A DNA stretch of 32,000 nt from Pyrodictium abyssi (GCF_036323395.1 NZ_AP028907.1:780001-812000), one strand, 5' to 3'. Numbered from the stretch's first letter, positions 5,716 through 29,795 are shown. Numbers and translations: made by a program. The notes: a model not told the origin generated them from the letters alone.

Positions 5716-5748
5716 AGCCGGGCACCCCCGGATCTAGGAGCCTGCACA

Positions 5749-7124: not shown

Positions 7125-7155
7125 ACCATGCCACCCCTAGCGCGACTCCCATTTG

Positions 7156-7596: not shown

Positions 7597-7669
7597 CCTA
7601 CTGCACCCATCCTGTCCACGAGTTCGTTACAGATGAGTTCAAAACGTTAAGCTGATAAACAGCCTAGGG

Positions 7670-8086: not shown

Positions 8087-8168
8087 AGCAGCTCTACACC
8101 CCGAGCGCTCGGAGAAACACGCTTAGAGTTATTTAAGCGGTAGCAAGAGGCTTCCTTGACGCGTCTTA

Positions 8169-8519
8169 TTAGCTCATTGGCTTCTTGCCTACTATCCCTA
8201 GTACTACGAAGTGTACCGTCTTCGCTAGCGGCCTGGTCTCGCCTATCACTACAACGTCTCCGGGCTGCGCGTTTATACACGGCGGGTTGTGTGCGTGTAT
8301 CCTGCTCCTCCTCTTCTCGTACCTCTTGTACTTTCTATCGTAGTACACGTACTCGCGCTCGACTACCACTGTGTTCTTCATCTTAGCCTTTATCACGGTC
8401 CCGGTTAGCACGAGGCCGCGGACCCTCACACTACCGTGCCATGGACACTTCGGGTCATTGCATGTCTTCTCGGGTGGGTTGACGCCAGGTATACCTACGT
8501 TTCTTACCCGCACGGACAA
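8169..8519 (-). CDS. rps17: 30S ribosomal protein S17 (uS17)
   Basis: VRNVGIPGVNPPEKTCNDPKCPWHGSVRVRG pattern. The exact start is uncertain: codon 8519 is TTG and a GTG lies 6 nt downstream. Confidence 0.9.
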   Translation of the reverse strand: MSVRVRNVGIPGVNPPEKTCNDPKCPWHGSVRVRGLVLTGTVIKAKMKNTVVVEREYVYYDRKYKRYEKRRSRIHAHNPPCINAQPGDVVVIGETRPLAKTVHFVVLGIVGKKPMS

Positions 8520-8814
8520 GCCATCCGACCCCCTTGTACCTCTCTAGCCGCCTAAGACGCTCGGGCTGCACTCCCGGTATTTCTTCTCCTCGTACAACAA
8601 CCCACGTGCCGTCGGGCAACTGGACTAGAAATATAGCGTTTGCTTTAGAGGCCCAGACTGTGCCACCAAGGCTTCTCCGGACTAGGAGTCCCCGGCGTGT
8701 CTCAAGCAGAACAGTGCCCTCGAGGCCACGGAGCACAGGATCTGGGTGGAGGAGTACACGTACCCGGAGACCTACAAGTGTGTGGAAAACTATGTTCCAC
8801 TCTGTATGCTTCAA
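8455..8814 (-). CDS. rnp1: RNase P protein component 1 (Rpp29/Pop4 family)
   Basis: HTLVGLRVRVLLHPDPVLRGLEGTVLLETRRGLLV, an Sm-like Rpp29 core. Canonical position between rpl29 and rps17. ATGA overlap with the rpl29 stop. Confidence 0.8.
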   Translation of the reverse strand: MKHTEWNIVFHTLVGLRVRVLLHPDPVLRGLEGTVLLETRRGLLVRRSLGGTVWASKANAIFLVQLPDGTWVVVRGEEIPGVQPERLRRLERYKGVGWLVRAGKKRRYTWRQPTREDMQ

Positions 8815-9041
8815 GCCTTGCTGCCCGTCTTGCGCTGCTTTAGCTCCTCTTCACGCATAACGGTTAGTATCCTGGCTATGGTCTTCCTTATGGCACGTAT
8901 GGCGCCCGGGTTCTCCAGAGTACCTACTACTGCCTTTAGGCGCAGCTTTACCAGCTCCTCTTGGAGCTCTTCAAGCTTCTTGAGCCTCTCCTCGGGGCTC
9001 ATCTTGCGTATGTCCTCTGTCTTTATCATGTACTTGGCCAC
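8811..9041 (-). CDS. rpl29: 50S ribosomal protein L29 (uL29)
   Basis: EDIRKMSPEERLKKLEELQEELVKLR. Confidence 0.9.
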   Translation of the reverse strand: MAKYMIKTEDIRKMSPEERLKKLEELQEELVKLRLKAVVGTLENPGAIRAIRKTIARILTVMREEELKQRKTGSKA

Positions 9042-9088
9042 GGTGCTTCACCCCTTCACCTTGTCGTGGTTCGGGAAGTGTACTGGAG

Positions 9089-9799
9089 TTATGCTCCCCG
9101 TTCCTTGGCCTCTTCAGGGCTAGCTTCCTTTAGCTTCTCTGCCTCAGCCGCGCGCTGCCTCTCTAGCTCCTCGCGTATCTCCTCAATGAACTCCTTTGCC
9201 TCCTCGGGCTGCTTGACGCGGACATAGTCGCTGGGCTTTGCAGGCTTAACTATTGTCACCTCTATGCCGAAGACACCGGGTTTCAGTGTTATGTGCATTA
9301 CAGCCTTATCGACCATGTACTCTACCTGGTTGCCGGTAGAGTAGACCTTGCCTACGCGCACCTTCTCGTAACGAGCCCTCTCTGTACGCAGCTTACCGCT
9401 GATAATTATCTGCGCGCCTATGGCCCCCGCGTTCATTATGCGGCGAGCCATGACGTTAGCTACACGGCGGTAGTAGGCGCCCCTCTCGAGGAACACCGCT
9501 ATCCTGGACGCCACGACACGTGCATTTAGATCGGGGTTCTCTACACGGCGCACTGTTATCTGCGGGTTCTGTAGGCCGAACTGCTGCTCGAATATAGCGG
9601 CTAGCTGGCGTATGGTTTCGCCTCTCCGGCCGATGATCATTGCCGGGCGCTCAGCGTCTATGAAGACCTTCGTGCCGAGTGGGAACTGGATTATCTGTAC
9701 ACCAGCGTAGCCTGCGCGGTAGAACCGCTTTGCTAGGTACTCGTCTATCTTAGTCTGTGCTATCGCCTTCTTGATGAAGTGCCTCTTTATGAGCACCAT
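9089..9799 (-). CDS. rps3: 30S ribosomal protein S3 (uS3)
   Basis: KH-domain region ERPAMIIGRRGETIRQL plus an acidic/basic C-terminal tail. Confidence 0.95.
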   Translation of the reverse strand: MVLIKRHFIKKAIAQTKIDEYLAKRFYRAGYAGVQIIQFPLGTKVFIDAERPAMIIGRRGETIRQLAAIFEQQFGLQNPQITVRRVENPDLNARVVASRIAVFLERGAYYRRVANVMARRIMNAGAIGAQIIISGKLRTERARYEKVRVGKVYSTGNQVEYMVDKAVMHITLKPGVFGIEVTIVKPAKPSDYVRVKQPEEAKEFIEEIREELERQRAAEAEKLKEASPEEAKERGA

Positions 9800-9801
9800 G
9801 G

Positions 9802-10272
9802 TTACTCTTCCTCCGCGACTACTATCTCGATGTGGCTATACTTCTTGAACCTGGGGGTTGAGCGGCCGAAGGCGCGTGGCATCCACCTCTTGAGAATGCG
9901 GCCCTTGTGTACAGCTATATGTACGATGCGTAGCTTCTCCGCGTCGAGGCCCTTAACCTCGGCATTGTTGGCTGCGTTCTCGAGCAGCTTGAGCAGTATG
10001 CGAGCCGCTTTGACCGGGTAGCGTCCTATCGGCCACTTGTACTTGGCGGCGAGCCCGCGGTGGTGGGCCTGCTTCCTCGCGTACCTGCGGACCGGTATCG
10101 GCTCCTCGCCCGCTGCTACACGCTCTAGGAGCTTACGTGCCTCGTCCAGCTTCATACCGCGTATGACACGGGCTAGCTCGACTATCTTCTTGTAGGATAT
10201 CGGCGCATCCCACATCATTGCCTTAGCTGAGCGCTCCTCGTCAACCCGTACCGAGTAATGCCATGTTGGCAA
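9802..10272 (-). CDS. rpl22: 50S ribosomal protein L22 (uL22)
   Basis: WHYSVRVDEERSAKAMMWDAPISYKKIVELARVIRGM pattern. The only in-frame start after the upstream stop (10291-10293) is TTG at 10272, preceded by gaggtgg. Confidence 0.92.
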   Translation of the reverse strand: MPTWHYSVRVDEERSAKAMMWDAPISYKKIVELARVIRGMKLDEARKLLERVAAGEEPIPVRRYARKQAHHRGLAAKYKWPIGRYPVKAARILLKLLENAANNAEVKGLDAEKLRIVHIAVHKGRILKRWMPRAFGRSTPRFKKYSHIEIVVAEEE

Positions 10273-10757
10273 CCCGAGGCCCCACCTCTCTTACTACAGC
10301 ATCCCCGGGAGCCGCTCACACCTCTGCACGCCTAAATAAGTGAATAGAGTGCGGCTGGCTATAATCTAGGCGATACTCCTAGAGGGGATGAGCGGGCTGA
10401 CCTGCACAGAGCAGCCGCGGTGAAGAATGCCTCTAACAGGCGACCCTCCTCTACACCGACGAGAATTGCCGTGGCCGTGCGTGGCCGGGATTGTGGACAT
10501 GAGTGTAAGGGGGGCCGTGACGCCTAGGGGTGGAGCCTCCGCGCGCTCACGGGGCCCCGGGGACACGGGGCACTCGCGCGGGCCTGCTCCCGTCTAGTAA
10601 GCGTGCTATGGCATGCCCTATCAAGTCTTCCTCCATAACCAGAGGCCGGCAGATAGAGTACAGCCTATCCCGGCAGGGATGCAGAAGAGAGGGCTACGCG
10701 TATCAGCGTATCGTAGTAAAAGAAGACTTGATTCAACATAGCCCGGGTAAGGGCCGG
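10273..10757. other. 485-nt GC-rich structured non-coding block in the slot where rpl2-rps19 normally sit (candidate ncRNA, class unknown)
   Basis: Only Arg/Pro/Gly-rich junk ORFs. An 11-bp perfect long-range inverted repeat: atcaagtcttc (10620-10630) with gaagacttgat (10722-10732). A 7-bp GC stem: ccgcgcg (10539-10545) with cgcgcgg (10575-10581). A hairpin at 10380-10435: tagagg/cctcta closing GGAUGA...GGUGAAG around the gcgg(g)ctg/cagccgc stem. Confidence 0.4.
10333..10339 (-). promoter_or_regulatory. TATA-like box (minus strand TTATTTA), candidate internal promoter for rpl22 and downstream genes
   Basis: AT-rich heptamer in otherwise GC-rich DNA, about 60 nt upstream of the rpl22 start. 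The same element could serve a plus-strand transcript instead. Confidence 0.3.
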
Positions 10758-11018
10758 CTAGAGTATGCCTAGCCTAGCGGCTATATCGCTGGCACTGTAC
10801 TCCTTAGCTAGCCTAACGTAGGCCTTCTTCTCGCCGCGCGGCGTTATTAGCGTGTTTACCTTCTCCACTTTGACCCCGAACGCCTGCTCAATAGCCCTCT
10901 TTATATCGTGCTTTGTTGCCTTCCTGTCTACTATGAATGTTAGGGTGTTCTGCTCCTCTATCAGCCTTAGGGCTTTTTCGCTCTGGACCGGGCGTATTAT
11001 TATACTCCAGGCGCTCAT
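10758..11018 (-). CDS. rpl23: 50S ribosomal protein L23 (uL23)
   Basis: [50 protein letters not shown]. Confidence 0.92.
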
Positions 11019-11048
11019 GGCTACACACCTCTAGGCTCGCATGCTGCT

Positions 11049-11879
11049 CTAGGCTAGTAGTATCCCGTCAAACCTCTTGGAGAGTTCAGCCAGTGCAGAC
11101 TTGCTTACAACGGTCAGTCTGCCGGGTACACCGCCGGGGGCAAGCTGCAGCACGTTTACGTGCCATGGGCCTGCGACGTCTACGCCTGGTAGACCGGCCA
11201 CTGCTCTTGCTAGAGGCGAGTTGTGGCTGCTTAGTATGAACAGTACACTCCTAGGTGTTATGTACCGTCTGCCGCGGCGCTTACCCTTGCCAGCACGTAT
11301 CCTTGTCCTCTCCTTGGCGCGCTCTATGTCTGCCCAGACACCTAGCTTCTCTAGGAGTGCGCGCGCATCGCGCACCTTGGTTATAGACTGCTCTACCTCG
11401 TCGTCTATAACCACTGGGAGCGTCTCTGCCGTGAATCTATGGCCACGCTTCTCTACAAACTCCTTCCTAGCCGTTGCGGCGAGCGCGGAGGCTGTTGCTA
11501 GCTTCTTCTCCTTCCTGTTGATCTCCTCGTGTATCCTTTTCTCCACACGTGGCGGGTGAGCGAGGTGACCGCCGACAGCCGAGTTTATGAATGCTGCCCG
11601 GCCCAGACCGGGAATCCGTGGTACTCTCGCTATGCCGAGGCCTACACCGAAGCTCCTAGCTGTGGTCCTCTTGCCGGCCATTGGGTCGCGGCCTTTGGGC
11701 TGTAGCCTTGCCGTGAACTCGGATAGGAATGCACGCCTTATCAGGTCGACGCGTACTGGTAGCCCATAGACCTTGGGTAGCTCTACCTCGGCAATCTTCT
11801 CGCCCGCGGCGTTGAATATTGGGACTACTGGCGGCTTCTCTGCTAGCAGGAACACCATGGAGCCTACCTTGTCCGCCAT
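11049..11879 (-). CDS. rpl4: 50S ribosomal protein L4 (uL4/L1e)
   Basis: RDPMAGKRTTARSFGVGLGIARVPR...GKGKRRGRRY pattern. Confidence 0.93.
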   Translation of the reverse strand: MADKVGSMVFLLAEKPPVVPIFNAAGEKIAEVELPKVYGLPVRVDLIRRAFLSEFTARLQPKGRDPMAGKRTTARSFGVGLGIARVPRIPGLGRAAFINSAVGGHLAHPPRVEKRIHEEINRKEKKLATASALAATARKEFVEKRGHRFTAETLPVVIDDEVEQSITKVRDARALLEKLGVWADIERAKERTRIRAGKGKRRGRRYITPRSVLFILSSHNSPLARAVAGLPGVDVAGPWHVNVLQLAPGGVPGRLTVVSKSALAELSKRFDGILLA

Positions 11880-11916
11880 GCTACCGCACCCCAGGGGTTG
11901 CTGCCATGCATGTTAC

Positions 11917-12960
11917 TTAATTGCCTTGCTTGCTCTGTAGGCTGATGTATGTTATCTTTGGCGCTGCTTCTGGCATCCAGCGTGGTCTCACTGGGTGGCG
12001 GAGCACTATAGGCCTCTTCGGCGTGCCTGGTATGCTGCCTGCTAGTAGCACGTAGCTGCTCCTCACTATGCCGTAGTGTAGGAAGCCGCCGGCCGGCGTT
12101 ACCTCTAGACCGTTATCGCCTATCTTTATGATGCGCTTGTTGTACTCTGTCCTCCTGTGGAAGCCCATCTGACCTGGCTGTGGCACCTCGCTCCACGAGA
12201 AGGTTGTGGCCGGGCCCCTGCTGCCTGGACCGCTACGGCTACCCTTACGGTGCTTGTGCCACTTTGGCAGCTCCTTAACACCGAACCTCTTTATTACGCC
12301 CTGGAAGCCCTTGCCCCTTGTCACCGCTATTACGTCTACGAACTGGCCCTCCTTGAATACGTCCTTTATGCTGAGCGGGTTGCCGACGAGCTTGACAGCG
12401 TAGTTAAACCTCTCATCTATACTGCTTCCACCGCCTATCTTTATCTCTATGAGGTCTGGCTTCTTCTTGCTTAGGCCGCCTACTAGCCTTGGCTGGGTAG
12501 CCGCGATAATCCTTACATCGTATACCTTTTCAAGCTTCTCCTCTAGCTTCTTTACAGCTTTCTCGGTGTCTGGGAACCGGAGCCTAGGTATAGCGCGGTA
12601 TATGTCTAGCTTGTAGTTCTCTACTAGAGTCTCGGGCTGTGCCCAGGCCTCGCCCAGAGTGTAGAGGCCTATGTTGGGGTCATAACCGTATACACGTACT
12701 GCTGTAACTATCATTGGCGGTGTCTCCACCACCGTTACCGGCATGAATATTTCTCTGCTCTGCGTGAGCGAGCCAGGCTCATCGTCTATGACGAACACGT
12801 GCGTCATGCCAGCCTTGTAGCCTAGGAATGCGAGCGGTAGGGGCGTCTCGCTCTGGACTTCTGGCCACGTCTTCACTCTCGGTACTATGCTTGAGGCCCT
12901 CTTCCGTGGCCTTACAGCAAGGCTGCCCCTACGAGGCGCATGCTTCTTTCTTGCACCCAC
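11917..12960 (-). CDS. rpl3: 50S ribosomal protein L3 (uL3)
   Basis: HAPRRGSLAVRPRKRA...GYKAGMTHV...TRGKGFQGVIKRFGV pattern. Confidence 0.95.
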   Translation of the reverse strand: MGARKKHAPRRGSLAVRPRKRASSIVPRVKTWPEVQSETPLPLAFLGYKAGMTHVFVIDDEPGSLTQSREIFMPVTVVETPPMIVTAVRVYGYDPNIGLYTLGEAWAQPETLVENYKLDIYRAIPRLRFPDTEKAVKKLEEKLEKVYDVRIIAATQPRLVGGLSKKKPDLIEIKIGGGSSIDERFNYAVKLVGNPLSIKDVFKEGQFVDVIAVTRGKGFQGVIKRFGVKELPKWHKHRKGSRSGPGSRGPATTFSWSEVPQPGQMGFHRRTEYNKRIIKIGDNGLEVTPAGGFLHYGIVRSSYVLLAGSIPGTPKRPIVLRHPVRPRWMPEAAPKITYISLQSKQGN

Positions 12961-13052
12961 TAGACACCACCGCCGTCATGCCAGTACTAGAGTCTACCCC
13001 GTCTCACGTGGGCTCCCCGACTACTAGCTTTTAACCCTAAGCCCTCAATCAG

Positions 13053-13940
13053 CTAGGACTCTAGGAACATGTTGTAGATTGCCAGCGTCGCCGCTACTGC
13101 TTCCTCTACACGGACTGTCCGGGTGCCCTGGTGCGGGATAGTATTGTAGATCCTATCAAATACCTCCTCCACGGAGAAGCCCTCACTACGGGCTATCTCG
13201 TAGAGGCCTCTGTCCGGCGCACCCATGAATATCGCTATACCTCTTCTAGCAGAGACTTCCCTAGCATCCCTAGAAGCCTTCTCTGCTGTCAGAACCTCGC
13301 CTAGACGGCTAGTAGCTACGCGCAGAAGGCTCCTCGTGTTGTTCAGCGCACCCCTGAGCCCTCTTACTATGTCCGTCCTGAACCCTGTGTAGATTCTCGC
13401 TTCACCTGGCCGGAGTATACGCAGCCGTGGAGGCTTTAACGACGTGATTTCAACTAGCACTCGTTTGTCTGGCAAGCGCTCAGGCTTCCTACACTTGACG
13501 TATCTACCTAGGCCGGCATCAAGCAGAACAACATCCCCTAGATCACGTAGCACCAGCGCTTCACGTACTTCGCCTACCCGCGGCCCACCAACACCGTGAG
13601 TTGGCAGCTGCAGAGGAGGGAGAACGCCCACGTATCTTAGCTCCGGCTTTCTCGGGTAAAGCCTCTTTTTCAGATACGGGGCAGTGAGCATGTACTCTGT
13701 TACCTCTTTTATCAGTTTAGCATCCTCGTCGACACCCTCTCTGTCGATGTAAACGAGCAGCCTTGTGGCACGGAAAACAGCCAGTAGCCTTGCAAGGATG
13801 CCTATTTTTATGGTCTTTAGTAGTAGGCTATGCTCTGTAGACAAGTAGGAGGCAGGTACTGCTACCACTAGCTCTATCCTACGGGCTACCGGAGTGTCGC
13901 GACGATGCATCTCCGTCGTGCCTCTGCTGCTGGTTATCAC
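13053..13940 (-). CDS. SPOUT-superfamily putative RNA methyltransferase (COG2106 / MTH1 / DUF171-like)
   Basis: LVVAVPASYLSTEHSLLLKTIKIGILARLLAVFRATRLLVYIDREG and C-terminal RTVRVEEAVAATLAI resemble the DUF171 alpha/beta-knot family, which commonly lies directly upstream of rpl3 in archaea. ATG at 13910 may be the true start, since the codon at 13940 is GTG. Confidence 0.65.
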   Translation of the reverse strand: MITSSRGTTEMHRRDTPVARRIELVVAVPASYLSTEHSLLLKTIKIGILARLLAVFRATRLLVYIDREGVDEDAKLIKEVTEYMLTAPYLKKRLYPRKPELRYVGVLPPLQLPTHGVGGPRVGEVREALVLRDLGDVVLLDAGLGRYVKCRKPERLPDKRVLVEITSLKPPRLRILRPGEARIYTGFRTDIVRGLRGALNNTRSLLRVATSRLGEVLTAEKASRDAREVSARRGIAIFMGAPDRGLYEIARSEGFSVEEVFDRIYNTIPHQGTRTVRVEEAVAATLAIYNMFLES

Positions 13941-14105
13941 CTTCTCGAAGCGTTTTAGCGCTAAGACCTGCGAGACGCAGCAAAACCATGCACAGCTACA
14001 CGTGCTGCTACTGGGCTAGGAACAGCGCTGTAGAGATGCACGGGAGACGTGTGGCCATGGAGGCAAAAACCATGGAGACATGGAGCTGAGCCACTGCGGC
14101 GGGGT

Positions 14106-14213
14106 TTAACGCTTCTTGCCACGACGCTGCTGTTGCTGCTGCCTAGCCTGCTTCGCAGCAGCCTTTGTCTCTTCCTTGGTCATGAAGAGGCTTGTTCTCT
14201 GCCTACCGCCCAT
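14106..14213 (-). CDS. Candidate small basic protein, 35 aa (MGGRQRTSLFMTKEETKAAAKQARQQQQQRRGKKR)
   Basis: Manual translation. ATG at 14213 is preceded by a ggtggagag SD-like element. Below the track cutoff. Overlaps track ORF 14049..14249 (+), which looks non-coding. Confidence 0.3.
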   Translation of the reverse strand: MGGRQRTSLFMTKEETKAAAKQARQQQQQRRGKKR

Positions 14214-14389
14214 ACTCTCCACCCGCGCTCGAGCGGTGTAGAGAGCTAGGTACATTACTGCTACGCTTCTCTAGCTTCAGCCTGGCCGGTGACGTGTTTG
14301 CCGAGTGCTGAGCAGCCAAGCAAGTGCTGAGTATCCCCCTTCTGCCGAGGCCGCTAGCCAGGAGCGAGGATGGGCCCTTATTCCGGGAG

Positions 14390-14458
14390 GGGCTCAGACG
14401 GGTTCATCTCGTCACGGCGACGCTACGGGCTCGGCGTTTGCACCCCTCATCACAGCCC
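14390..14458 (-). ncRNA. Candidate box C/D sRNA (2'-O-methylation guide)
   Basis: Minus strand reads GGGC-U-GUGAUGA(C)-GGGGUGCAAACG(12 nt)-CCGA(D')-GCCCGUAGCGUCGCC-GUGACGA(C')-GAUGAACCCGU(11 nt)-CUGA(D)-GCCC. The 4-bp terminal stem GGGC/GCCC flanks the C and D boxes with K-turn geometry. Lies in a 270-nt intergenic region. Confidence 0.45.
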
Positions 14459-14477
14459 GGCCGGAGAGTAGCTCCCG

Positions 14478-14486
14478 ATAAATATT
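14478..14486 (+). promoter_or_regulatory. TATA-like box (ataaatatt) upstream of the CxxCxxCC gene
   Basis: About 40 nt upstream of the ATG at 14522. Predicts a short leader if the TATA is centred near -26/-27. Confidence 0.35.
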
Positions 14487-14521
14487 GAGGGTACGTTAGC
14501 CCTGCACAAGGGCTCGGGGAT

Positions 14522-15097
14522 ATGGCGAGGAAAAGACCGGTGTTTAACTGTTTGTTTTGCGAGCACTGCTGCTACTTTAGTGAAGAGTATGAAATGCCGG
14601 TAGTCTTTCCCTGGGAGAAACGAGAGTTAGAGAAAATAGCTGCCGAGATAGGTGTTAAACTTCACTTCAAGCCGCTCCAAGCATTTATTGACAGAAACGG
14701 CGTATGCGCTATAACCCTCTATAGGTGGGAGATTCAAGGATTCTGCCCATTTTTCGATAAGGCTAGTAAGCGCTGCAGCATCCATGATGATAAGCCGCTA
14801 GCATGTAGGATGTACCCACTGCTTATAGAGATGCCTTCAGGCAACCTAATGGCATCCGGTAAGTGTGACTGGATAAAACAGCAAGGACCAAGGTTCATAA
14901 GACAACTCTCTACAAAGCCGGAGACTATACCGGAGGTGTTTCCAGCGGAGTTCGAGGCCGCTAAGAAGGCGTTCATAGAGTTCACAACTATAAACTCCTT
15001 CATTGAGAGGCACGGCCTACAGCCGATAAATGTTAATAAGTTAAACAATTGTAATGAGGTCTTCGACATAGATGATTACATGGCGAGGTTCGACTAG
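14522..15097 (+). CDS. YkgJ/UPF0153-family zinc- or iron-chelating protein (CxxCxxCC motif)
   Basis: N-terminal CLFCEHCC (CxxCxxCC), with later FCPFF and C-x-I-H...P-x-x-C-R-x-YP elements typical of PF03692-type proteins. Confidence 0.7.
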   Translation: MARKRPVFNCLFCEHCCYFSEEYEMPVVFPWEKRELEKIAAEIGVKLHFKPLQAFIDRNGVCAITLYRWEIQGFCPFFDKASKRCSIHDDKPLACRMYPLLIEMPSGNLMASGKCDWIKQQGPRFIRQLSTKPETIPEVFPAEFEAAKKAFIEFTTINSFIERHGLQPINVNKLNNCNEVFDIDDYMARFD

Positions 15098-15099
15098 CC

Positions 15100-15378
15100 T
15101 TGGGGAGGGAGCGACGCCTCATCAGAGTGTTCTTCAACACATACTATGAAGACGTAGCAGAGAACGTGCTGAACGAACTCAAGAGCCTAGGATACGAAAT
15201 GAAGCTGACGAATTCAAGGGTTGTCCCGGAGCTGTATTACGTCGAGATGGAGGTAGGGGCTGAGAACTTAGACCAGGCTGTCGAGAAGGTGCAGAGACTG
15301 CTCGAAGAAGCTAGAGACAGGTATTCGGGCCGTCTATTCGGGGTCAAAGTATACGGTGTTGACGCATCGTCGTCATAG
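15100..15378 (+). CDS. Hypothetical small protein (about 85-92 aa), coupled to the upstream gene
   Basis: ORF begins 2 nt after the stop of the previous gene (TTG at 15100, GTG nine codons later). Balanced, non-repetitive composition. No family recognised. Confidence 0.45.
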   Translation: MGRERRLIRVFFNTYYEDVAENVLNELKSLGYEMKLTNSRVVPELYYVEMEVGAENLDQAVEKVQRLLEEARDRYSGRLFGVKVYGVDASSS

Positions 15379-15380
15379 CG

Positions 15381-15385
15381 TTTTT
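15381..15385 (+). terminator. T5 tract just after the 15100..15378 stop (archaeal oligo-T terminator candidate)
   Basis: cgTTTTTgctcc starts 3 nt after the stop; a second T-rich run ttatttt follows at 15396-15402. Confidence 0.3.
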
Positions 15386-15427
15386 GCTCCAGCGTTATTT
15401 TGCACTTTACCATTATGATGCTGTGTT

Positions 15428-17440
15428 CTAGCTTCGTATAATCCTGCGCATGACCGGCGCTATATCCTGTGGCGCTTTTATAACGTAGAGCCGTGCGTAA
15501 TGTCTAATCTTGTTTGCCACCCTCGTGTCGTGCTTTGGGGGCAGGATTATTGTTATTCTCCATCCTCTTTGCCGTAGTTCGCGTAGAATGTCTTCGATAG
15601 GTTCGTCGGCAGCTATTGTCTGCTTGAGGTCGCTTATTAGAACCATGTGCTGTGGCATTGCAGCTCTGGCCGCTAGGCGTATAGCGTTAACTATGTCTGT
15701 ATAGCCTGCGAACTTTGTTGAAAGCACTAAGTCTACTATGCGGAGCGGGTTTACTAGTTTCAGGTTACTATACATAGTTGCGTTTTCATCGAATATTATC
15801 AGCCTTGATATGCTTGCTGCGAGTGCTGAGGCTGCTAGTACTGTGTAGACTGCGTACGGTCTCATGCTACCGCTCTTGTCTACTACTACCGTGTACTGCT
15901 TTGTAGAGTACCTCGTAATCCTGACTATAGGATTAGAGCTGAAGCGTACAATGTTCTCTAGAGTCTTGCGTATATGTAGCCGGCCTCGTGTGCTGCTAAA
16001 GCAGCTCTTGCGTGATAGCCTCATGCCGTGTTCTACACGAGCTTCTCTCCATAGACTCTTCATGAGCATTACCGCGTAGCTTCTTATCCTCCTATCGTTA
16101 GTACTGCTATATACTGTGTGTAGGAGTTTTAACGCTTCGAAGACATCCATACTCTTCACAATATTCTTCATCAACGTGTATGTGTCTCCACGTTCTGCAG
16201 CATCAAATAGTTGTTTCAGTCTAGCTATTTCCGACTCAATTATGTCCGCCAGCTTGCCGTCATATTGACTCCTTATGCTGCTCCATCGCTCTACTGCACG
16301 AGTGAACTCGTATTCGGCATACTCTAGCAGAGCATCTGTAGGCTCAACTAGGCTCTTTAAAAGATAGTTCTTTGCCTCTGCGAGCCTGTTGAGCACGTCA
16401 AGAGCCTCGTTTGGGCCTCTACCTATGCTGCTTAGTAGCCCTATTTCACGTCTGTCAAGCATCTCCGCTACTACGCCTCGTCTTGAAGCACGTGCACCTA
16501 TAGCTTTCAGCGCTATTTCGATAGCTCCGTCCTTATTGTGTGATGACATTTCCACTGCTATGTCGAGGAGTATTTCTCTTCCGAAGTCTTTGACAGCTCT
16601 TTCTGCTAGACGAGGGTTGCGCTCAAGTATGCTGCGTAGGTGGTGTCGTGATAGCATGTTTTCTTTTCGGAGTATCTCGTATACGCTTTCAGCATCACTG
16701 TAATGTTCTCCTTGGTTCATCTTTTCCTCTATAGACCTTGAAATTATTCGTTTTAGATGCTTGTTTTTGCCTGCATAACGGTATAGCTTTACAAGCTCGT
16801 CTATGCTTAGCTCCCTGGAGTCTATGTAGTTGAATAGTTCGTAGCCCATCGAGGCAACTATACCGCCGTGACGAGCTATGTTACGCTTTATCATGTCTCT
16901 GACAGCGTCCTTATAGTCTCGGTAGCGGTGGGCTAGCTGCTCTATTATCCGGCGCGCCTGGCTACTGGATACTACATACTCCCCCTTGCGTCCTCGACGT
17001 ATTATTCCTAGTAGCTTTAACCTAGCATATGCCCCCTGGGTCTTTCCGCTAGTATAGTTTCTACGTCGTAGTTTCGCTCCGTAATGGAGTCCTAGTGTAT
17101 GCAAGTCCTTCTCTATCTCGTCTTCTATGCGTTTTGCAGAGCTTCGTGGTAGACAGCACCGTTTTACTAGATCCTTTACTATTTCATTTACTATGCGTTC
17201 TTCATGCATTCGTTTTGCGTATACAGAGGAAAGGACTAGAGCTATCTCATCAGGGGTAAGCGTTTCGACGCCAGATACAGCTGCGTATAATGCTAGTAAC
17301 CGTGTGGCTTCAACTATCTCTGCTGCTGATATTCTGAGTCCTCTCTTTCTAGCTTCTACTGCTACTCCGTATGCTATTTTGCGTAGTTCTTCTCTACTAT
17401 CTCTACGGATGTAGACCGAATACTCTCTCGATGGTTTCAT
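15428..17440 (-). CDS. von Willebrand factor A (VWA) domain protein with a long helical N-terminal region (CoxE-like partner of MoxR)
   Basis: C-terminal MIDAS elements VVVDKSGSM (DxSxS), GYTD and LISDL. Start ATG at 17440 overlaps the upstream MoxR gene by 38 nt. Confidence 0.8.
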   Translation of the reverse strand: MKPSREYSVYIRRDSREELRKIAYGVAVEARKRGLRISAAEIVEATRLLALYAAVSGVETLTPDEIALVLSSVYAKRMHEERIVNEIVKDLVKRCCLPRSSAKRIEDEIEKDLHTLGLHYGAKLRRRNYTSGKTQGAYARLKLLGIIRRGRKGEYVVSSSQARRIIEQLAHRYRDYKDAVRDMIKRNIARHGGIVASMGYELFNYIDSRELSIDELVKLYRYAGKNKHLKRIISRSIEEKMNQGEHYSDAESVYEILRKENMLSRHHLRSILERNPRLAERAVKDFGREILLDIAVEMSSHNKDGAIEIALKAIGARASRRGVVAEMLDRREIGLLSSIGRGPNEALDVLNRLAEAKNYLLKSLVEPTDALLEYAEYEFTRAVERWSSIRSQYDGKLADIIESEIARLKQLFDAAERGDTYTLMKNIVKSMDVFEALKLLHTVYSSTNDRRIRSYAVMLMKSLWREARVEHGMRLSRKSCFSSTRGRLHIRKTLENIVRFSSNPIVRITRYSTKQYTVVVDKSGSMRPYAVYTVLAASALAASISRLIIFDENATMYSNLKLVNPLRIVDLVLSTKFAGYTDIVNAIRLAARAAMPQHMVLISDLKQTIAADEPIEDILRELRQRGWRITIILPPKHDTRVANKIRHYARLYVIKAPQDIAPVMRRIIRS

Positions 17441-18422
17441 CAACTATTTCCTCCTCACCAACACGTTTGTACAGTATTATAGTGGCTGCATCTACCACCT
17501 CGCTGACCGTGACTTGTTGTTTACCTCGTAGCTTGGCTAGTCGGCCAGCTATTCGCGCCCATAGTACCGTGTCTGCTGGGCCTGGCTTATACGCCGCTTT
17601 CTGGCGAAGAATGCTAACTACTTGAATCATTGCTTCTAATATTTTTGAGTCCAACTCGACGTCTATATCATATCTTAGCTTTACTATTTCTGCTTCAACA
17701 TCGGGAGGTGGGTAACTGAAGGGTATCCTTACTACTCTCCTGAGAAATGCGTCGCTTAGCTCACTTTGTGCATAATCTTCGGGATTGCTAGTAAATATTA
17801 CTTGGAATCCTTCGCCTTTTGCACGGAAGACTCTACGGAGTTCTGGGACAATTATACGACGTTTATCTATTATGTCTAGGAGCATGTTTTGGAATTCTTC
17901 GTTGCTTCGTCTTATTTCGTCTACAAGTACTCCTGTATCAAGTATTAGTGCTGCAAGGAGGGGCCGTGGTATGAAGCTTTTCTCGTTAAAGCCGTATCTC
18001 AATGCCATCAGGGGATGGAAATCACCTATAACTCTATATTCATCGTAGTTCTCGCTACAGGGTATTATTAGAGCTGGCTTTCCAGCCCAGAGCGATAGTA
18101 TAGCTTCACCTATCTCGGTCTTTCCTGTACCCGGGGGTCCCTCAAAGAGCACCGGGCGTCCCGCGAGAAATGCTGCCACAACTAATGTGACAAGTTTCCT
18201 GTCAACGAGGAGTTTATACTCTCTTCTCAGAATCTCTATCATTTTGTCTACGCTTCTTACTGGCTTCCTTTTATGCTTCTCTATTACCTCGGCGTAGATA
18301 CTAGCAACTTTCTCCTCAATACTTTCATGCATTTCATCACTATCCTTTTGACTAGGTGAACTGATCATCTCTTCAACTATTTTTTCGACATACTTTTCTT
18401 TATCGACCTTGCTTACGTCCAT
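17403..18422 (-). CDS. MoxR-family AAA+ ATPase
   Basis: Walker A GPPGTGKTE; Walker B and MoxR signature VLVDEIRRSNEEFQNMLLDIIDKRRIIVPE; sensor region FQVIFTSNPED. Confidence 0.85.
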   Translation of the reverse strand: MDVSKVDKEKYVEKIVEEMISSPSQKDSDEMHESIEEKVASIYAEVIEKHKRKPVRSVDKMIEILRREYKLLVDRKLVTLVVAAFLAGRPVLFEGPPGTGKTEIGEAILSLWAGKPALIIPCSENYDEYRVIGDFHPLMALRYGFNEKSFIPRPLLAALILDTGVLVDEIRRSNEEFQNMLLDIIDKRRIIVPELRRVFRAKGEGFQVIFTSNPEDYAQSELSDAFLRRVVRIPFSYPPPDVEAEIVKLRYDIDVELDSKILEAMIQVVSILRQKAAYKPGPADTVLWARIAGRLAKLRGKQQVTVSEVVDAATIILYKRVGEEEIVDETIERVFGLHP

Positions 18423-18614
18423 TTTTGCACCCTTCTGACACCCTAGATTACTGGAGCCAGCTACATTATAGCTGTCTAACCTACAGCAGGTTTGCCACCA
18501 TGAGGGGTGTTGGCCTCGTACACACTTATTAGCCTCACTACAAGCTTATTGTCTACACAGCATTACTTGCTTTAGTACATAGCTAGAGTTGCTAGACTTT
18601 ATGCCGAGGCTGCT

Positions 18615-19097
18615 ATGCGACGAACTACCGGGGTATATAGGGCTATGAGTAGAATACGGCGCAGTAAAGACGACAATATCATTTATAGTGTCTGGATTCG
18701 TAGAGGACCAGATATATTCCATTACGACATAGTCTTTGAAGACGACTGTATAAGGCTTGTGTATCTAGGCGAGTACTGGGAGCGTGTTAGGCCAAAGACT
18801 GGTCTACAGCGACGTGTTGACATGTTTATATACTCCATAAGGAAGCGAAGGGAACGCATTTACGGAGAAGGAGAGAGACCAATGGTTATTAACTACTGCG
18901 ATATATCAAGTTATGAGATTGTTAAGCCTCGCCCTGCTGTATCTCGTGAAGACTTGTCTCCAGGTGCCCTGGAGCTGCTACTGCGTGATGGAAAGCGTAT
19001 TCGTATAGAGTTCTCTCCGAGGGTGTACGAGATCGTGAAGTCAGCTGTAAAGAAGTATGTAAGAAGCGGCATTGAACGGTGTAAAGGTAGGAGATAG
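18615..19097 (+). CDS. Hypothetical protein (about 150-160 aa), divergent from the MoxR gene
   Basis: Intact ORF with balanced composition. Internal ATG at codon 11 fits the ctttatg TATA-like box at about 18597. No family recognised. Confidence 0.45.
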   Translation: MRRTTGVYRAMSRIRRSKDDNIIYSVWIRRGPDIFHYDIVFEDDCIRLVYLGEYWERVRPKTGLQRRVDMFIYSIRKRRERIYGEGERPMVINYCDISSYEIVKPRPAVSREDLSPGALELLLRDGKRIRIEFSPRVYEIVKSAVKKYVRSGIERCKGRR

Positions 19098-19150
19098 TAG
19101 GCGCCGGGCGATGAAGATGGCCCGATAGGCTGAAGAAAGCATATGCCATG

Positions 19151-19726
19151 TCATGATGACGGATCAACCGTCGGAGCCCGGCTATGCTTTTGCTTGATGC
19201 GGATAAACGCGTAGTCCTTTGACGTTTCCCCTATGTATAGTCCGTAGTTTGGGAGTTCGCGTACTATCTTGTGTGCCTTTTTCAGGCTTGTAACTACGGC
19301 ATACAACTTGGTTACACGGTCCATCTCCTTTAATGCTCTTGATTTATCTTCAACAAGATCAACTACTGTGAAGGATACCGTGTAGTTGACGCTCTCGCTG
19401 CGTAGAGGAAGATTCTCGGCGTCAGCCTCGACATGCTCTACCATGTGCGCGAGCCCTAGGCTTGCTGTACGCTTTCTAGCTACGTCGAGCATTCCAGGAG
19501 ATAGGTCTAGGCAGATATAGTACGTTATGCCATCTACTCCATGCGTAGATGCAAGGTATTCCAGAAACAGCCCGGTACCACATCCATTGTCTAGGACTTT
19601 GCCGTGAAGCTTCACGCTACGCATTGCAAGCATGTATTTTTCAAATTGTTCGTCACGGTATAGCTCGTCGTACCCTGAGCTTGTAACATTGTATTTTTCC
19701 CGCATTATTGCCTTCTTTGAGGTCAA
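19151..19726 (-). CDS. Class I SAM-dependent methyltransferase
   Basis: Motif I VLDNGCGTGLFLEYL, post-I CLDLSPGML, acidic motif ADAENLP. The codon at 19726 is TTG; the first ATG is at 19705. Confidence 0.8.
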   Translation of the reverse strand: MTSKKAIMREKYNVTSSGYDELYRDEQFEKYMLAMRSVKLHGKVLDNGCGTGLFLEYLASTHGVDGITYYICLDLSPGMLDVARKRTASLGLAHMVEHVEADAENLPLRSESVNYTVSFTVVDLVEDKSRALKEMDRVTKLYAVVTSLKKAHKIVRELPNYGLYIGETSKDYAFIRIKQKHSRAPTVDPSS

Positions 19727-19874
19727 CTAGCCCCCCTTCGGTACTAGACATGCTCAACCATGAGTTTTTCGAGCACGTACATAGAAGGACGAGCTATAGT
19801 TACCATGTCGCCGGCACAAATCGGTTGCAGAGGCAGGTATAGTTTTGAGAGGTTTAGGTGATAGGTGATGTGGT

Positions 19875-19879
19875 AAAAA
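19875..19879 (-). terminator. T5 tract about 30 nt downstream of the rps19 stop
   Basis: Minus strand reads gtcaTTTTTacc. Consistent with the rpl2-rps19 unit ending here rather than running into rpl22. Confidence 0.3.
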
Positions 19880-19908
19880 TGACTGTAAATTAGAAGGTAT
19901 ACAGTGCT

Positions 19909-20376
19909 CTACTTCAGTGCTACATGTAGGCTGCTCCTTGTGGCCTTGAGGCCGGGCTCTCCATGCTGTACCTGGCGGCATGTTGGGCTGAACTCGCCGA
20001 GGTAGTGGCCTATCATTTCTGGCGTTATGCGCACTGGGACGAACTCCTTACCGTTGTATACGGCTATGGTCATTCCAATCATTTCTGGCAGTATTATCAT
20101 ATCCCTTACATGCGTCTTTACTACTACCTTTTTGCCCTTGAGTATCTTCTGCCGTGCCTTGCGTATCTTCCAGAGTAGGCGGCGCTGCGGGTCTGTTAGA
20201 CCTCTCAGTAGGCTTCTCCTCTGCCTTGCTGGTAGGAGCTTTATGAATATGTCCATTGGCATCGAGAGTAGCTCTTCTAGTGTGTAGCCGCGGTAGCGGA
20301 ACTTCCGCCACTCCGGCGGCAGGGTCTCAAGCCACTTCTTCATTTCCTCATCCAGCTGCGGCTTCACAGCCTGCAT
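19909..20376 (-). CDS. rps19: 30S ribosomal protein S19 (uS19)
   Basis: [14 protein letters not shown]...[44 protein letters not shown]. Confidence 0.93.
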
Positions 20377-20424
20377 ATTCTACACCCCATGTGGGCGAGG
20401 CTAAACACGTATGGGGGTTTAATG

Positions 20425-21141
20425 CTACCTCTTCTTCCGGCCTGTCGAGCGCGCAGCAATATGGCCGACTTTTCTGCCTGGCGGCGCATCTCTGGAGACT
20501 GTTGTTGGGAAGCTTGGGCTCTGGTGGCTGCCACCGCCGTGCGGGTGGTTTACAGCGTTCATGGCTACACCGCGTACACGTGGCCATACATGGGCCTTAG
20601 CCTTCCACTTATAGTATGCTGCACCAGCCTTGAGGAGCGGCTTCTCTAGGCGACCAGCGCCAGCGGCTATACCTATGGTTGCCCTAGCATCGTTTGGTAT
20701 CTCTTTGACTTTTCCGCTGGGGAGCTGTACTATCGTCTTATTACCACTACGGCCCAGTATGACTGCATAGGCGCCCGACGAGCGCGCTAATTTCCCGCCA
20801 TCGCCCGGCCTAATCTCCACATTGTATATCTGCGTACCTTCAGGAATCCTACCGACCGGGAGTATGTTGCCATTGGCGGGCTTCGCGTCCGGCCCAACCT
20901 CTATGATCTGGCCAACATACATGCCCTCAGCCGCTGGTATCCAAAATTCTTCACCGTTCTCCAGCACTACATGAGCGAGTGGAACCCAGCGGCCTGGATC
21001 GTGCACGAGCTCTACTACGCGCCCTCTCAGCGTTACTGGTGTCAGCGGCGGATACTTCGCTGGCGCTGGGTGCAGCCACGGCTTGCTGCGATATACTGGT
21101 GAGCCCTTACCCCTACGCTGTACTATCAAGCGCTTACCCAT
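20425..21141 (-). CDS. rpl2: 50S ribosomal protein L2 (uL2)
   Basis: MGKRLIVQRRGKGSPVYRS...VRGVAMNAVNHPHGGGSHQ. Confidence 0.96.
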   Translation of the reverse strand: MGKRLIVQRRGKGSPVYRSKPWLHPAPAKYPPLTPVTLRGRVVELVHDPGRWVPLAHVVLENGEEFWIPAAEGMYVGQIIEVGPDAKPANGNILPVGRIPEGTQIYNVEIRPGDGGKLARSSGAYAVILGRSGNKTIVQLPSGKVKEIPNDARATIGIAAGAGRLEKPLLKAGAAYYKWKAKAHVWPRVRGVAMNAVNHPHGGGSHQSPSFPTTVSRDAPPGRKVGHIAARSTGRKKR

Positions 21142-22537
21142 AGCGTAGCACCCTTCCCCGGCTGCTCGTCCCCTGTATGCTCGGACTCTTAACTGTTATC
21201 GGTACGGGGAGTATTCTAGCTGGAAAGGCTCTTTGTGACTGCTGGTAACGGATCAATGCCTCACCGACACCAAGCCTGGGAAGATACTCTAAATCCTCAT
21301 AGGCTATTCCACTAAATCTCTTCACATCTTCTAGATAAGTCTCATCAAGAGAACCAAACACTACTACGTTGTTAGAGTTATTCCATACCTCGGGACTAAA
21401 ATCTGCTGGATGTTGTGATAGTAGGACTAGGCTAATGCCACTACTCCTTCCTTCCCTGATAAGTTTTTTCACAACCTCACTATTACTGACTCTCCAGAAT
21501 TCATCTACTATGAGAACAGATCTTGCGTACATACTCTGCAGCATAGAGAATATACTAGCCAATGTAGATTCAAGGTGAATATATTTCTCGTTTTCACTAA
21601 GATATTTTAGGTCAATTATTAGAATATTGCTGAATTTGCTGGTAACCATGCTAGCTAAAAATATGCGTTGATGAGCATGCTCATCTTCCAATAACACGCG
21701 CTCAGCTAGACCAGTCCATGACAAGGTGTCCCACATATCTCCCTTTGGGTCAACAGCAACTACTCTAGCGTCATAGAGTAAAGTAGCCATAATTGCAATA
21801 AGAGCTGCAAGTGTAGTTTTCCCCTTACCCGTGGGACCTACTACTATTGTATGCTTAGCTCCCCTCTCATCCCAGAGAGGAAGTCCAACAACTTTTCCTA
21901 GCAGTAGGTCAAAGCCTATAGGTACAGACTCGCTCCCTAAGTATTCTCCTACTGTATATGGGTATTGCATCCACTCAATACCTTTGCTTACAAGTAGGCT
22001 TCGAGGTTGCACTACATGCTTATTATAGCTTTTTAAAAAATTTGGATCTACGCATTTAAGCCTAGGTTTACAGCCTAGAAGGGAGAACGCGTCTACTATG
22101 CCGTGGTATTCCTCTTCTATAGTCCCAGGCCTCCCACATACAACTATATGTAATGATGGTTCAACTGGATCACCATAGTCTGTTATCTTTCCATAAACTT
22201 CTCTTAGTATTTTTAATTTGGTTTTTGCACGCATGTTGTTTGGATTTCGTTCTAGCTCTACTTCGTAGGAGAGTATCTTTGACTCTATTACTCTGGCAGC
22301 ATAGCTGTTCTTAACAGGTCTGTAAAGTAGGAATATTCCACAAATTTTCCTATCGAGCAGTCTTAGTCTATCGCTTAGAAGCTTTGAGAAACACGACTCA
22401 TCGCCTCTAATTTCTACAATAATGCCCACTAGGTCCGACGCTATATCAAAGGTACAGAGACTGCTAACATGCTTGGGTGTACCTTCTACCACCGCGCGCA
22501 ACCTGTCTATATATTTTGATATACTTTTAATCACCAT
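21134..22537 (-). CDS. VirB4/TrbE-like P-loop ATPase of the HerA/FtsK superfamily (CedB-like), no TM segments
   Basis: Walker A VVGPTGKGKTT, followed by VVAVDPKGDMW. Walker B LIVDEFWRV resembles the DEAW motif of VirB4. About 230-aa N-terminal non-ATPase domain. ATG at 22537 lies 4 nt after the stop of the upstream 53-aa ORF; the track start at 22567 is TTG. The stop overlaps the rpl2 ATG. Confidence 0.7.
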   Translation of the reverse strand: MVIKSISKYIDRLRAVVEGTPKHVSSLCTFDIASDLVGIIVEIRGDESCFSKLLSDRLRLLDRKICGIFLLYRPVKNSYAARVIESKILSYEVELERNPNNMRAKTKLKILREVYGKITDYGDPVEPSLHIVVCGRPGTIEEEYHGIVDAFSLLGCKPRLKCVDPNFLKSYNKHVVQPRSLLVSKGIEWMQYPYTVGEYLGSESVPIGFDLLLGKVVGLPLWDERGAKHTIVVGPTGKGKTTLAALIAIMATLLYDARVVAVDPKGDMWDTLSWTGLAERVLLEDEHAHQRIFLASMVTSKFSNILIIDLKYLSENEKYIHLESTLASIFSMLQSMYARSVLIVDEFWRVSNSEVVKKLIREGRSSGISLVLLSQHPADFSPEVWNNSNNVVVFGSLDETYLEDVKRFSGIAYEDLEYLPRLGVGEALIRYQQSQRAFPARILPVPITVKSPSIQGTSSRGRVLRYG

Positions 22538-22541
22538 ACTA

Positions 22542-22703
22542 TCACCAGTATGCAGTTTTTCTGACAATTACGAACAAGGCTATATTAATCACCGAAAGTA
22601 TCATTAAAATTACATTTTTCGAATCTAATGCATGAATAACACCATATAGGGATAAACCTAGTGCTATGTATAGCGACTTTCTAAGTGTTAGAGTTACTTG
22701 CAT
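22542..22703 (-). CDS. Small two-TM membrane peptide, 53 aa (CedA2-like by size, topology and position)
   Basis: Manual translation: MQVTLTLRKSLYIALGLSLYGVIHALDSKNVILMILSVINIALFVIVRKTAYW. A ggtg SD lies about 9 nt upstream. Stop TGA at 22542 sits 4 nt before the ATPase ATG. Missed by the ORF track (<60 aa). Confidence 0.45.
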   Translation of the reverse strand: MQVTLTLRKSLYIALGLSLYGVIHALDSKNVILMILSVINIALFVIVRKTAYW

Positions 22704-22730
22704 CACTAAACACCATAGCTAATGTTCTGA

Positions 22731-24182: not shown

Positions 24183-24188
24183 ATATTT

Positions 24189-24194
24189 ACCTCC
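24189..24194 (-). promoter_or_regulatory. Shine-Dalgarno GGAGGT between the pilin-like gene stop and the polytopic-protein ATG
   Basis: Minus strand reads TAA GGAGGT AAATAT ATGATG. The 12-nt spacer argues for translational coupling. Confidence 0.5.
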
Positions 24195-29790: not shown

Positions 29791-29795
29791 GCTTG

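Follow-up and report, generated by a model that had tools for sequence, protein, structure and literature searches.

Displacement of rpl2-rps19 in the S10-like ribosomal-protein cluster of Pyrodictiaceae and a candidate K-turn RNA at the vacated junction

The ribosomal-protein gene order L3-L4-L23-L2-S19-L22-S3 has been regarded as almost universal in Bacteria and Archaea, yet in Asgard and some other archaea a uL3-uL4-uL23(-uL2) cluster stands separate from the genes from uS19/uL22 onwards (PMC10833476). Here, a further broken arrangement is described in a 32,000-nucleotide (nt) stretch of the Pyrodictium abyssi genome (GCF_036323395.1, NZ_AP028907.1:780001-812000; hereafter the window), in which rpl2 (uL2) and rps19 (uS19) have left their usual place between rpl23 and rpl22. 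Like the fragmented archaeal S10/spc clusters already described (PMC10833476), this locus is broken around uL2/uS19, with uL3-uL4-uL23 remaining together and uL22 to uL15 remaining together. It differs from them in that uL2-uS19 stay paired on the strand of uL3, ~9 kb upstream of it and directly behind a putative ced operon, and in that uL23 and uL22 have become neighbours.

A second comparison is offered by the Desulfurococcaceae type (CP072660 and locus L013), with the order ced-SPOUT-L3-L4-L23-L2-Cren7-x-MoxR-VWA-S19-L22, which has the same gene set and the same ced, SPOUT and MoxR-VWA neighbours. In that type L2 stands behind L23, S19 stands before L22 and MoxR-VWA lies between the two, whereas in the window L2-S19 lie together between ced and the MoxR module. 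The order found in Pyrodictiaceae was not found described in the literature searched. Overall, it is very probable that this is an ancient, fixed S10-like cluster of the Pyrodictiaceae that arose by exchange of two blocks, is read as separate transcription units, and carries a small RNA with a kink-turn (K-turn) at the vacated junction.

Gene order in the window and across the family

Read along the minus strand, the genes follow the order cedA1-cedA-cedA2-cedB-rpl2-rps19-methyltransferase-orf160(+)-MoxR-VWA-orf92(+)-orf191(+)-SPOUT-rpl3-rpl4-rpl23-(485 nt)-rpl22-rps3, and all features below lie on the minus strand unless stated. The displaced genes, rpl2 (20425-21141; Pfam Ribosomal_L2_C, E 2e-45) and rps19 (19909-20376; Pfam Ribosomal_S19, E 3e-33), adjoin with a 48-nt spacer. 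The rpl3-rpl4-rpl23 block (10758-12960) is contiguous and co-oriented, with spacers of 30-37 nt between rpl3 (11917-12960), rpl4 (11049-11879) and rpl23 (10758-11018), all identified by Pfam, and is preceded by a SPOUT-type putative RNA methyltransferase (13053-13940; Pfam Methyltrn_RNA_3, E 2e-39).

Both canonical adjacencies are lost. Where rpl2 would be expected, rpl23 is followed by a spacer of exactly 485 nt (10273-10757) and then by rpl22 (9802-10272; Pfam, TTG start); in place of rpl22, rps19 is followed by a class I S-adenosylmethionine (SAM) methyltransferase (19151-19726; Pfam Methyltransf_11). Downstream, rpl22-rps3-rpl29-Rpp29-rps17-rpl14-rpl24-rps4e-rpl5-rps14-rps8-rpl6-rpl32e-rpl19e-rpl18-rps5-rpl30-rpl15 (777-10272) was assigned from open reading frame (ORF) translations, Pfam matches for L22 and Rpp29, and tblastn synteny, and is unbroken from rps3 through rpl15 in the ORF translations. 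Between rps19 and rpl3 there are exactly seven ORFs, namely the methyltransferase, orf160(+), MoxR, VWA, orf92(+), CxxCxxCC-191(+) and SPOUT. Pfam identities, ORF order and coordinates thus bear out the initial annotation of this DNA in its description of a same-orientation displacement of rpl2-rps19 by ~9 kb, of broken L23-L2-S19-L22 adjacencies, and of seven intervening genes.

By tblastn, 19 window proteins were mapped onto 31 loci, and further loci were found by look-up from the MoxR orthologue, among them Hyperthermus butylicus (L152, CP000493) and Pyrolobus fumarii (L153, CP002838). A search of a genome collection with the L3 protein marked the window as Pyrodictium-like, with 96% identity to a P. 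delaneyi metagenome-assembled genome (MAG). The full order ATPase-L2-S19-methyltransferase-(VWA, MoxR, orf160)-orf92-orf191-SPOUT-L3-L4-L23-gap-L22-S3 recurs in L004, L005, L006 and L017, which have L3 proteins 78-84% identical to that of the window and one of which lies on a 1.24-Mb contig, and L001, L002 and L003 agree across the parts that they cover. The arrangement also matches in two closed genomes, those of Hyperthermus butylicus and Pyrolobus fumarii, and in the MAG L157, the identity of L3 falling to ~76-78% among relatives that have it. The derived adjacencies cedB/L2, S19/methyltransferase and L23/L22 (with a spacer of 290-485 nt) are present in L004, L005, L006, L017, L152, L153 and L157, and in these Pyrodictiaceae the methyltransferase always adjoins rps19.

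With identical order and junctions in at least nine independent assemblies of Pyrodictiaceae, the arrangement is neither a misassembly nor a recent excision: the displacement of rpl2-rps19 is an ancient, fixed trait of the whole family, present in each of its genomes that was examined. The comparison of gene order that the initial annotation had named as its own possible refutation has therefore returned the lineage-trait outcome, and the novelty and recency that it implied for the excision do not hold, the arrangement being long-standing across the family and present in the complete genomes CP000493 and CP002838. The broken order has indeed been visible for years in public genome records.

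Origin of the arrangement

The tblastn comparison shows canonical L23-L2-S19-L22 in Sulfolobaceae (L016, L019) and also in archaea further removed (L024-L031), both of which retain the longer series SPOUT-L3-L4-L23-L2-S19-L22. In Sulfolobaceae, Methanomethylicia and other outgroups the SPOUT gene stands before rpl3, and comparative gene order marks it as the ancestral neighbour on the upstream side of that gene. Genomes of the Desulfurococcales group break the rpl2/rps19 segment in at least six further ways. L013 and CP072660 have L23-L2, MoxR-VWA and S19-L22 in succession; L008 and L023 keep L23-L2, with S19 and L22 inverted elsewhere; the pair is swapped in L009 and L011 (L23-S19-L2), and S19-L2 has moved away in L010, L012 and L014; L015 (Ignicoccus), L018, L020 and L021 have none of L2, S19 or L22 within 10 kb after L23; the locus is scrambled in L155; S19 is solitary in L156 and L160; and MoxR-VWA-S19-L22 occurs without L2 in L158 and L159. 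The five Ignisphaera-like loci (L009, L011, L010, L012, L014) have rps19 before rpl2, the reverse of the universal order; this reversed pair either follows rpl23 directly, or is found 7 kb downstream, or stands upstream of rpl3 in inverted orientation. Together with the published archaeal clusters (PMC10833476), these breakage patterns in relatives make the premise of a near-universal order too strong for Archaea.

In the outgroups L013 and CP072660, the latter a Desulfurococcaceae genome, cedA1-cedA-cedB lies directly upstream of SPOUT-rpl3-rpl4-rpl23-rpl2, which makes ced/SPOUT the older adjacency. The old adjacencies ced/SPOUT, L23/L2 and S19/L22 have given way to ced/L2, S19/.../SPOUT and L23/L22, and all orientations are kept; the replacement of three adjacencies with orientations preserved is the signature of a single three-breakpoint transposition. 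Starting from a canonical ced / SPOUT-rpl3-rpl4-rpl23 / rpl2-rps19 / rpl22, the two middle blocks would have been exchanged with their orientation retained, as a single three-breakpoint transposition of the adjacent SPOUT-L3-L4-L23 and L2-S19 segments, with the methyltransferase, the orf160/MoxR-VWA module and two small genes coming to lie at the new rps19...SPOUT junction. Either tandem duplication with reciprocal loss or excision with re-insertion could have produced it.

The strongest competitor concerns this history. It supposes an ancestor in which MoxR-VWA already separated rpl2 from rps19, the state found in CP072660 and L013, and from which several inversions or transpositions led to the present order, rps19 remaining with MoxR-VWA and being secondarily rejoined to rpl2. 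MoxR-VWA orthologues do lie directly upstream of rps19 in L154, L013, L158 and L159, remain within 5 kb of it even where rps19 is solitary (L156, L160) or the region scrambled (L155), and the gene for isoleucyl-tRNA synthetase (IleRS) adjoins the MoxR module in L158 and L159 and also in Pyrolobus and L157. This recurrence of MoxR-VWA directly upstream of rps19 in many relatives weighs against a simple block exchange, as, were it ancestral, at least three operations would be needed and the rpl2-rps19 adjacency could be secondary. On the other side, one transposition plus an insertion suffices from the canonical order. A multi-step origin is a serious possibility, with rather less than an even chance.

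The seven intervening genes, initially read as simple insertions, are poorly described in that way, as MoxR-VWA and orf160 have been neighbours of rps19 over the long term throughout the order. The module (15428-19097, mixed strands; Pfam and synteny) consists of a MoxR-type AAA_5 ATPase (17403-18422; Pfam AAA_5), a CoxE-like VWA protein (15428-17443; Pfam VWA_CoxE), and orf160 on the plus strand, a conserved divergent partner of MoxR that has homologues upstream of MoxR. Each of the nine genomes in which a MoxR-VWA orthologue (58-75% identity) was looked up has rps19 no more than 5 kb away; rps19 is directly downstream, with a spacer of 17-59 nt, in L013, L154, L158 and L159, and it stays near MoxR-VWA even without other ribosomal-protein neighbours in L156 and L160.

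Within the family the orf160/MoxR-VWA block has undergone inversion: the window, L001 and Hyperthermus have it co-oriented, and Pyrolobus, L002-L006, L017 and L157 have it in the opposite orientation. The P. delaneyi MAG shares the block orientation of the window and Hyperthermus, opposite to that of most other Pyrodictiaceae. Between the two orientation groups, VWA is 28-34% identical and MoxR 66-72%, VWA being far more divergent. In Pyrolobus and L157 the rps19...SPOUT interval also encloses the IleRS gene.

Transcription units and the rpl23-rpl22 gap

The signals previously noted, T-tracts after rpl23 and rps19 and a TATA-like box before rpl22, are present in the sequence. The tract after rpl23 (TCTTCTTTT, 10717-10725) and the T-rich tract after rps19 (19871-19895, with ATTTTTA at ~19875-19880) appear terminator-like. 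The TATA-like box CTTATTTAGG (10331-10340), ~60 nt upstream of rpl22, is a candidate promoter of rpl22-rps3 and has no other exact match anywhere in the window; L002, L004 and L017 have the identical box before rpl22, and L006 has TTTATAGG there. Allowing mismatches, the 10-mer was not enriched over shuffled sequence (25 matches in the window, 31.9 expected), so only the exact match upstream of rpl22 is taken as meaningful. A second TATA-like box, CTTGATAGGG (10616-10625), is located ~25-30 nt upstream of the small-RNA hairpin described below, and is matched by A/T-rich boxes at equal distance in L002, L004, L006, L017 and Hyperthermus, which with the window makes six genomes. A TTAAAAG box precedes rpl3. 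For rpl2-rps19, a putative internal promoter is provided by the conserved A/T-rich box CCGATAACAGTTAAGAG (21186-21202), which falls within the 3' end of cedB, 45-61 nt ahead of the rpl2 ATG. A/T-rich GTTAAGA, GTTTAAA or GTTAAAG occurs at similar distance in all eight Pyrodictiaceae genomes compared, although this conservation could instead reflect the coding sequence of cedB.

These promoter- and terminator-like signals fit the earlier suggestion of at least three transcription units, and four candidates can be proposed if a small-RNA gene is included. The first would comprise (ced-)rpl2-rps19, probably transcribed from the promoter inside the cedB 3' end and closed by the T-tract after rps19; the second SPOUT/rpl3-rpl4-rpl23, ending at the T-tract after rpl23; the third the K-turn small-RNA gene in the vacated rpl23/rpl22 junction; and the fourth rpl22-rps3 onwards, from its own TATA box. 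The cluster thus most likely runs as separate transcription units.

The gap itself, initially described as a 485-nt non-coding block, is of exactly that length and encodes no protein, but it is no empty spacer, as two blocks inside it are conserved across genera. In an alignment of the gap from six genomes, sequence outside conserved blocks is mostly unalignable. The first block is a small-RNA candidate of ~88 nt (10505-10592), defined by a covariance model, a consensus fold and conservation. RNAalifold gives a three-helix hairpin, GGAGC/GCUCC, CCGCGCG/CGCGCGG and GCCCCG/CGGGGC, with a K-turn-like internal loop (GA opposite NRUGA) between the second and third helices. The pattern CGA-GU-GCCCC...GGGGC-YC-NRU-GA-GCG appears to fit the K-turn consensus of tandem sheared G.A pairs and a 3-nt bulge, and to align to the PyrR204/PyrR206 K-turn. 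The hairpin is followed on its 3' side by a nearly invariant single-stranded tail (ACCCCUAGGCGUCA..GGCCCC..ACA). The covariance model (R1) scores 77-122 bits in eight Pyrodictiaceae genomes including Hyperthermus, always directly after rpl23, and found nothing in 17 other archaeal loci; the element lies 50-110 nt after rpl23, on the same strand as rpl23 and rpl22.

Several results count against this account of the gap. The covariance model did not find the small RNA in the Pyrolobus gap. Covariation is scant, with two compensatory pairs, both in the apical helix, a number equalled by 11 of 500 shuffles. Taken singly, the sequence folds with an energy no more favourable than shuffled sequence does (z = 0.29), and the predicted minimum-free-energy fold differs from the comparative one; thermodynamics giving no support, the claim for a small RNA rests on comparative conservation. 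The Rfam matches, to the Pyrobaculum H/ACA-like sR204/sR206 K-turn hairpins, are weak (E 0.48 and 6.1) and far under gathering, at 18.2 bits for PyrR204 (threshold 71) and 15.0 for PyrR206 (threshold 46). Finally, all of the transcription units and promoters proposed above are read from sequence motifs. At gathering thresholds Rfam had no match in the whole window, and ARAGORN found no tRNA or transfer-messenger RNA (tmRNA). When metagenomes were scanned for the invariant 15-mer GGCTCCACCCCTRGG, 120 loci came back; every one was a chance match without the hairpin, the pattern being too short.

The closest described RNAs are H/ACA guides together with H/ACA-like ones, in which the GA stem is ~10 bp when canonical and 8-13 bp in the H/ACA-like forms, and the canonical form has a pocket, a lower stem of 5-9 bp and an ACA 14-16 nt from the upper stem (PMC4652768). 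The GA stem of the element is 9 long, comprising seven Watson-Crick pairs (CCGCGCG/CGCGCGG) and two G.A pairs, and falls in the H/ACA-like range. Between GGAGC/GCUCC and the upper stem, the internal loop measures no more than 3-4 + 2 nt (in Hyperthermus, 0 + 2 nt), and the ACA is found 24 nt beyond GCUCC and 31 nt beyond the upper stem. A canonical H/ACA RNA is ruled out by the lack of a pocket, of a lower stem and of an ACA at 14-16 nt. Atypical guides lacking canonical features are known from Sulfolobus islandicus (sR109, sR136, sR148 and sR563; PMC11077068, PMC4652768), and the element resembles the lower-stem-less guides of Pyrobaculum (sR203-sR210, Rfam PyrR204/PyrR206) and S. islandicus, including the single-3'-guide sR148. 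As in these, a real pseudouridylation pocket and a long lower stem are both lacking, and the highly conserved single-stranded 3' flank could act as a guide. It differs from them in being far under the Rfam thresholds, in placing its ACA 24-31 nt from the stem rather than 14-16 nt, and in having flanks that can pair over 5 bp (GGAGC/GCUCC).

By this analogy the small RNA would bind L7Ae and be atypical and H/ACA-like, as in Pyrobaculum and Sulfolobus, and, as a guide, would be expected to target a site that reads 5'-(complement of AGGCUCCACCCCUAGG)-U-N-(complement of the 5' flank)-3'. Its identity as an H/ACA-like guide is tentative, coming close to an even call, and the broader assignment to some L7Ae-type K-turn RNA may be made with more confidence.

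An alternative is that the hairpin acts in cis within mRNA, either as a processing or stability element of the rpl23 3' untranslated region, or as a leader of the rpl22 unit that binds L7Ae or another ribosomal protein for feedback. Its strand, shared with rpl23 and rpl22, its constant position 50-110 nt after rpl23, the general function of K-turns as protein-binding motifs, and the lack in the window sequence alone of a folding-energy signal for a stable stand-alone RNA are all in keeping with this. A T-tract nevertheless separates rpl23 from the hairpin, a TATA-like box stands 25-30 nt upstream of the hairpin in six genomes with another TATA box between the element and rpl22, and Pyrolobus has the same gene order without the element, which together make a cis-acting element unlikely.

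The second conserved non-coding block (GGGTCGCC...CAGGTCAGCCCGCTCATCCCC, 10383-10446, strand unassigned) was recognised by cross-genome conservation: L001, L006, Pyrolobus and Hyperthermus have it in common with the window, and it is absent from L002, L004, L005 and L017. Its consensus fold is weak and unconvincing and it has no family match. On the opposite strand there are a weak box C/D look-alike, with a non-canonical D-like box and CUGA only 5 nt after the C-like box, and a micro-ORF of 9-11 codons, of which the stop codon is not conserved in Hyperthermus. In L007, an uncultured relative with an L3 76% identical, two secreted or surface-type protein genes (280 and 1087 amino acids (aa); L007 12165-16393) are inserted at rpl23/rpl22 and replace the small-RNA spacer. 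The junction therefore tolerates interruption, in support of the idea that co-transcription of rpl23 with rpl22 has ceased.

The contents of the gap also bear on whether rpl2-rps19 might have been excised and re-inserted recently and in a strain-specific manner, perhaps leaving a decaying copy behind. The gap is unusually long for the cluster and sits exactly at the expected position of the pair. Permissive tblastn (word size 2, E up to 100) against the gaps of six genomes recovered no colinear or frame-consistent L2/S19 remnant, and the decayed copy that the initial annotation had envisaged came down to noise, the best match spanning 13 residues on the wrong strand (E 0.027). What is conserved within the gap are candidates for a structured RNA and a promoter box rather than pseudogene fragments, and the arrangement is common to genera with L3 proteins only 76-84% identical, so that a recent event is highly improbable.

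The GC content of the window falls sharply, from ~0.57 (1-14000) to ~0.45 (15000-32000), and a GC step of this kind might be expected of a chimeric contig in which a high-GC ribosomal region had been joined to a low-GC one and the displaced rpl2-rps19 were unreal. Third-codon-position GC (GC3) is 0.57-0.72 in ribosomal-protein genes and 0.36-0.55 in their neighbours, and rpl2 (0.57) and rps19 (0.65) resemble the other ribosomal-protein genes and not the low-GC genes around them, showing that composition tracks gene class and not location. With this, and with the junctions cedB/rpl2, rps19/methyltransferase and rpl23/gap/rpl22 found in at least nine independent assemblies, including two closed isolate genomes and a 1.24-Mb MAG contig, an assembly artefact is scarcely credible.

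The putative Ced operon, the MoxR-VWA module and their significance

The Ced DNA-import operon is damage-inducible in Sulfolobales. Upstream of rpl2, the window contains genes of the same general order and size, named here after the described components (PMC11868833). The first gene, cedA1 (24195-24476), scores 129.5 bits against NCBIfam Ced_CedA1 (cut-off 100), and precomputed labels place Pfam CedA1 on the equivalent genes of L152, L153, L154 and L157. It is followed by a cedA-like polytopic membrane protein (22731-24182), of which the best NCBIfam match is Ced_CedA (E 7e-36, 124 bits, cut-off 330) and which along its whole length shares 27% identity (E 3e-36) with the gene upstream of SPOUT-rpl3 in the outgroup L013. 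A 54-aa ORF (22542-22706, from the ORF list) occupies the cedA2 position and is a candidate for that gene; it had no NCBIfam family match, and an ORF of 55-81 aa lies between the cedA-like and cedB-like genes in L152, L153, L154 and L157. The last gene encodes a cedB-like VirB4/HerA-type ATPase (21134-22567; Pfam AAA_10), with DNA_import_CedB as best NCBIfam match (E 3e-23, 82 bits, cut-off 700) and 30% identity to the ATPase upstream of SPOUT in L013.

The likeness to the Ced system thus lies in a CedA1 above its cut-off, in agreeing gene order and sizes, and in best matches to CedA and CedB. The locus is unlike described Ced loci in that CedA and CedB fall well under their curated cut-offs and in that the 3' end of the operon is fused with rpl2, the cedB-like stop codon overlapping the rpl2 ATG by 8 nt (21134-21141, ATGGGTAA). 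A putative DNA-import operon is in this way physically fused to a ribosomal-protein gene, and the cedB/rpl2 overlap, or a very short spacer of up to 89 nt, is kept across Pyrodictiaceae. The ced operon is flanked by an Lhr-type helicase (24638-27505, minus strand) and a divergent membrane-anchored HerA/VirB4-like ATPase (27566-29452, plus strand), for which the best NCBIfam match is CedD, a weak one. The same trio lies upstream of ced in Hyperthermus.

Among NCBIfam models, the MoxR protein matches 'MadB family AAA-type ATPase' best and the VWA protein 'MadC family VWA domain-containing protein', both far under cut-offs. Nothing specific on a link between MoxR-VWA and the ribosome was found in the literature. 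The conserved linkage with rps19 suggests a relationship that is possibly functional. In a bolder form, the MoxR AAA_5 ATPase, the CoxE-like VWA protein and orf160 would make up a ribosome-linked chaperone module with functional ties to uS19 and the operon head, comparable in a prokaryote to the combination of AAA_5 and MIDAS logic in midasin (Rea1), and, as a second and smaller part of the same proposal, the vacated junction would encode a new family of K-turn guide RNAs; this is speculative and rather improbable. If true, selection keeping the module by rps19 would explain why rps19 has repeatedly left its canonical place with MoxR-VWA in the Desulfurococcales group, the order described here for Pyrodictiaceae among the cases.

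For these archaea a broken order is in itself unsurprising, as the rpl2/rps19 part of the cluster is generally unstable in the clade. It nevertheless supplies a useful, synapomorphy-like marker for Pyrodictiaceae, and illustrates cleanly how three breakpoints can rearrange a gene cluster that is among the most conserved known. Two leads are of greater interest: an unannotated K-turn small-RNA candidate, conserved in the family and placed precisely where rpl2-rps19 used to be, which could be a new atypical H/ACA-like guide, and the travelling of rps19 with MoxR-VWA through many rearrangements, which hints at an unrecognised link between MoxR chaperones and ribosome biogenesis in Crenarchaeota.

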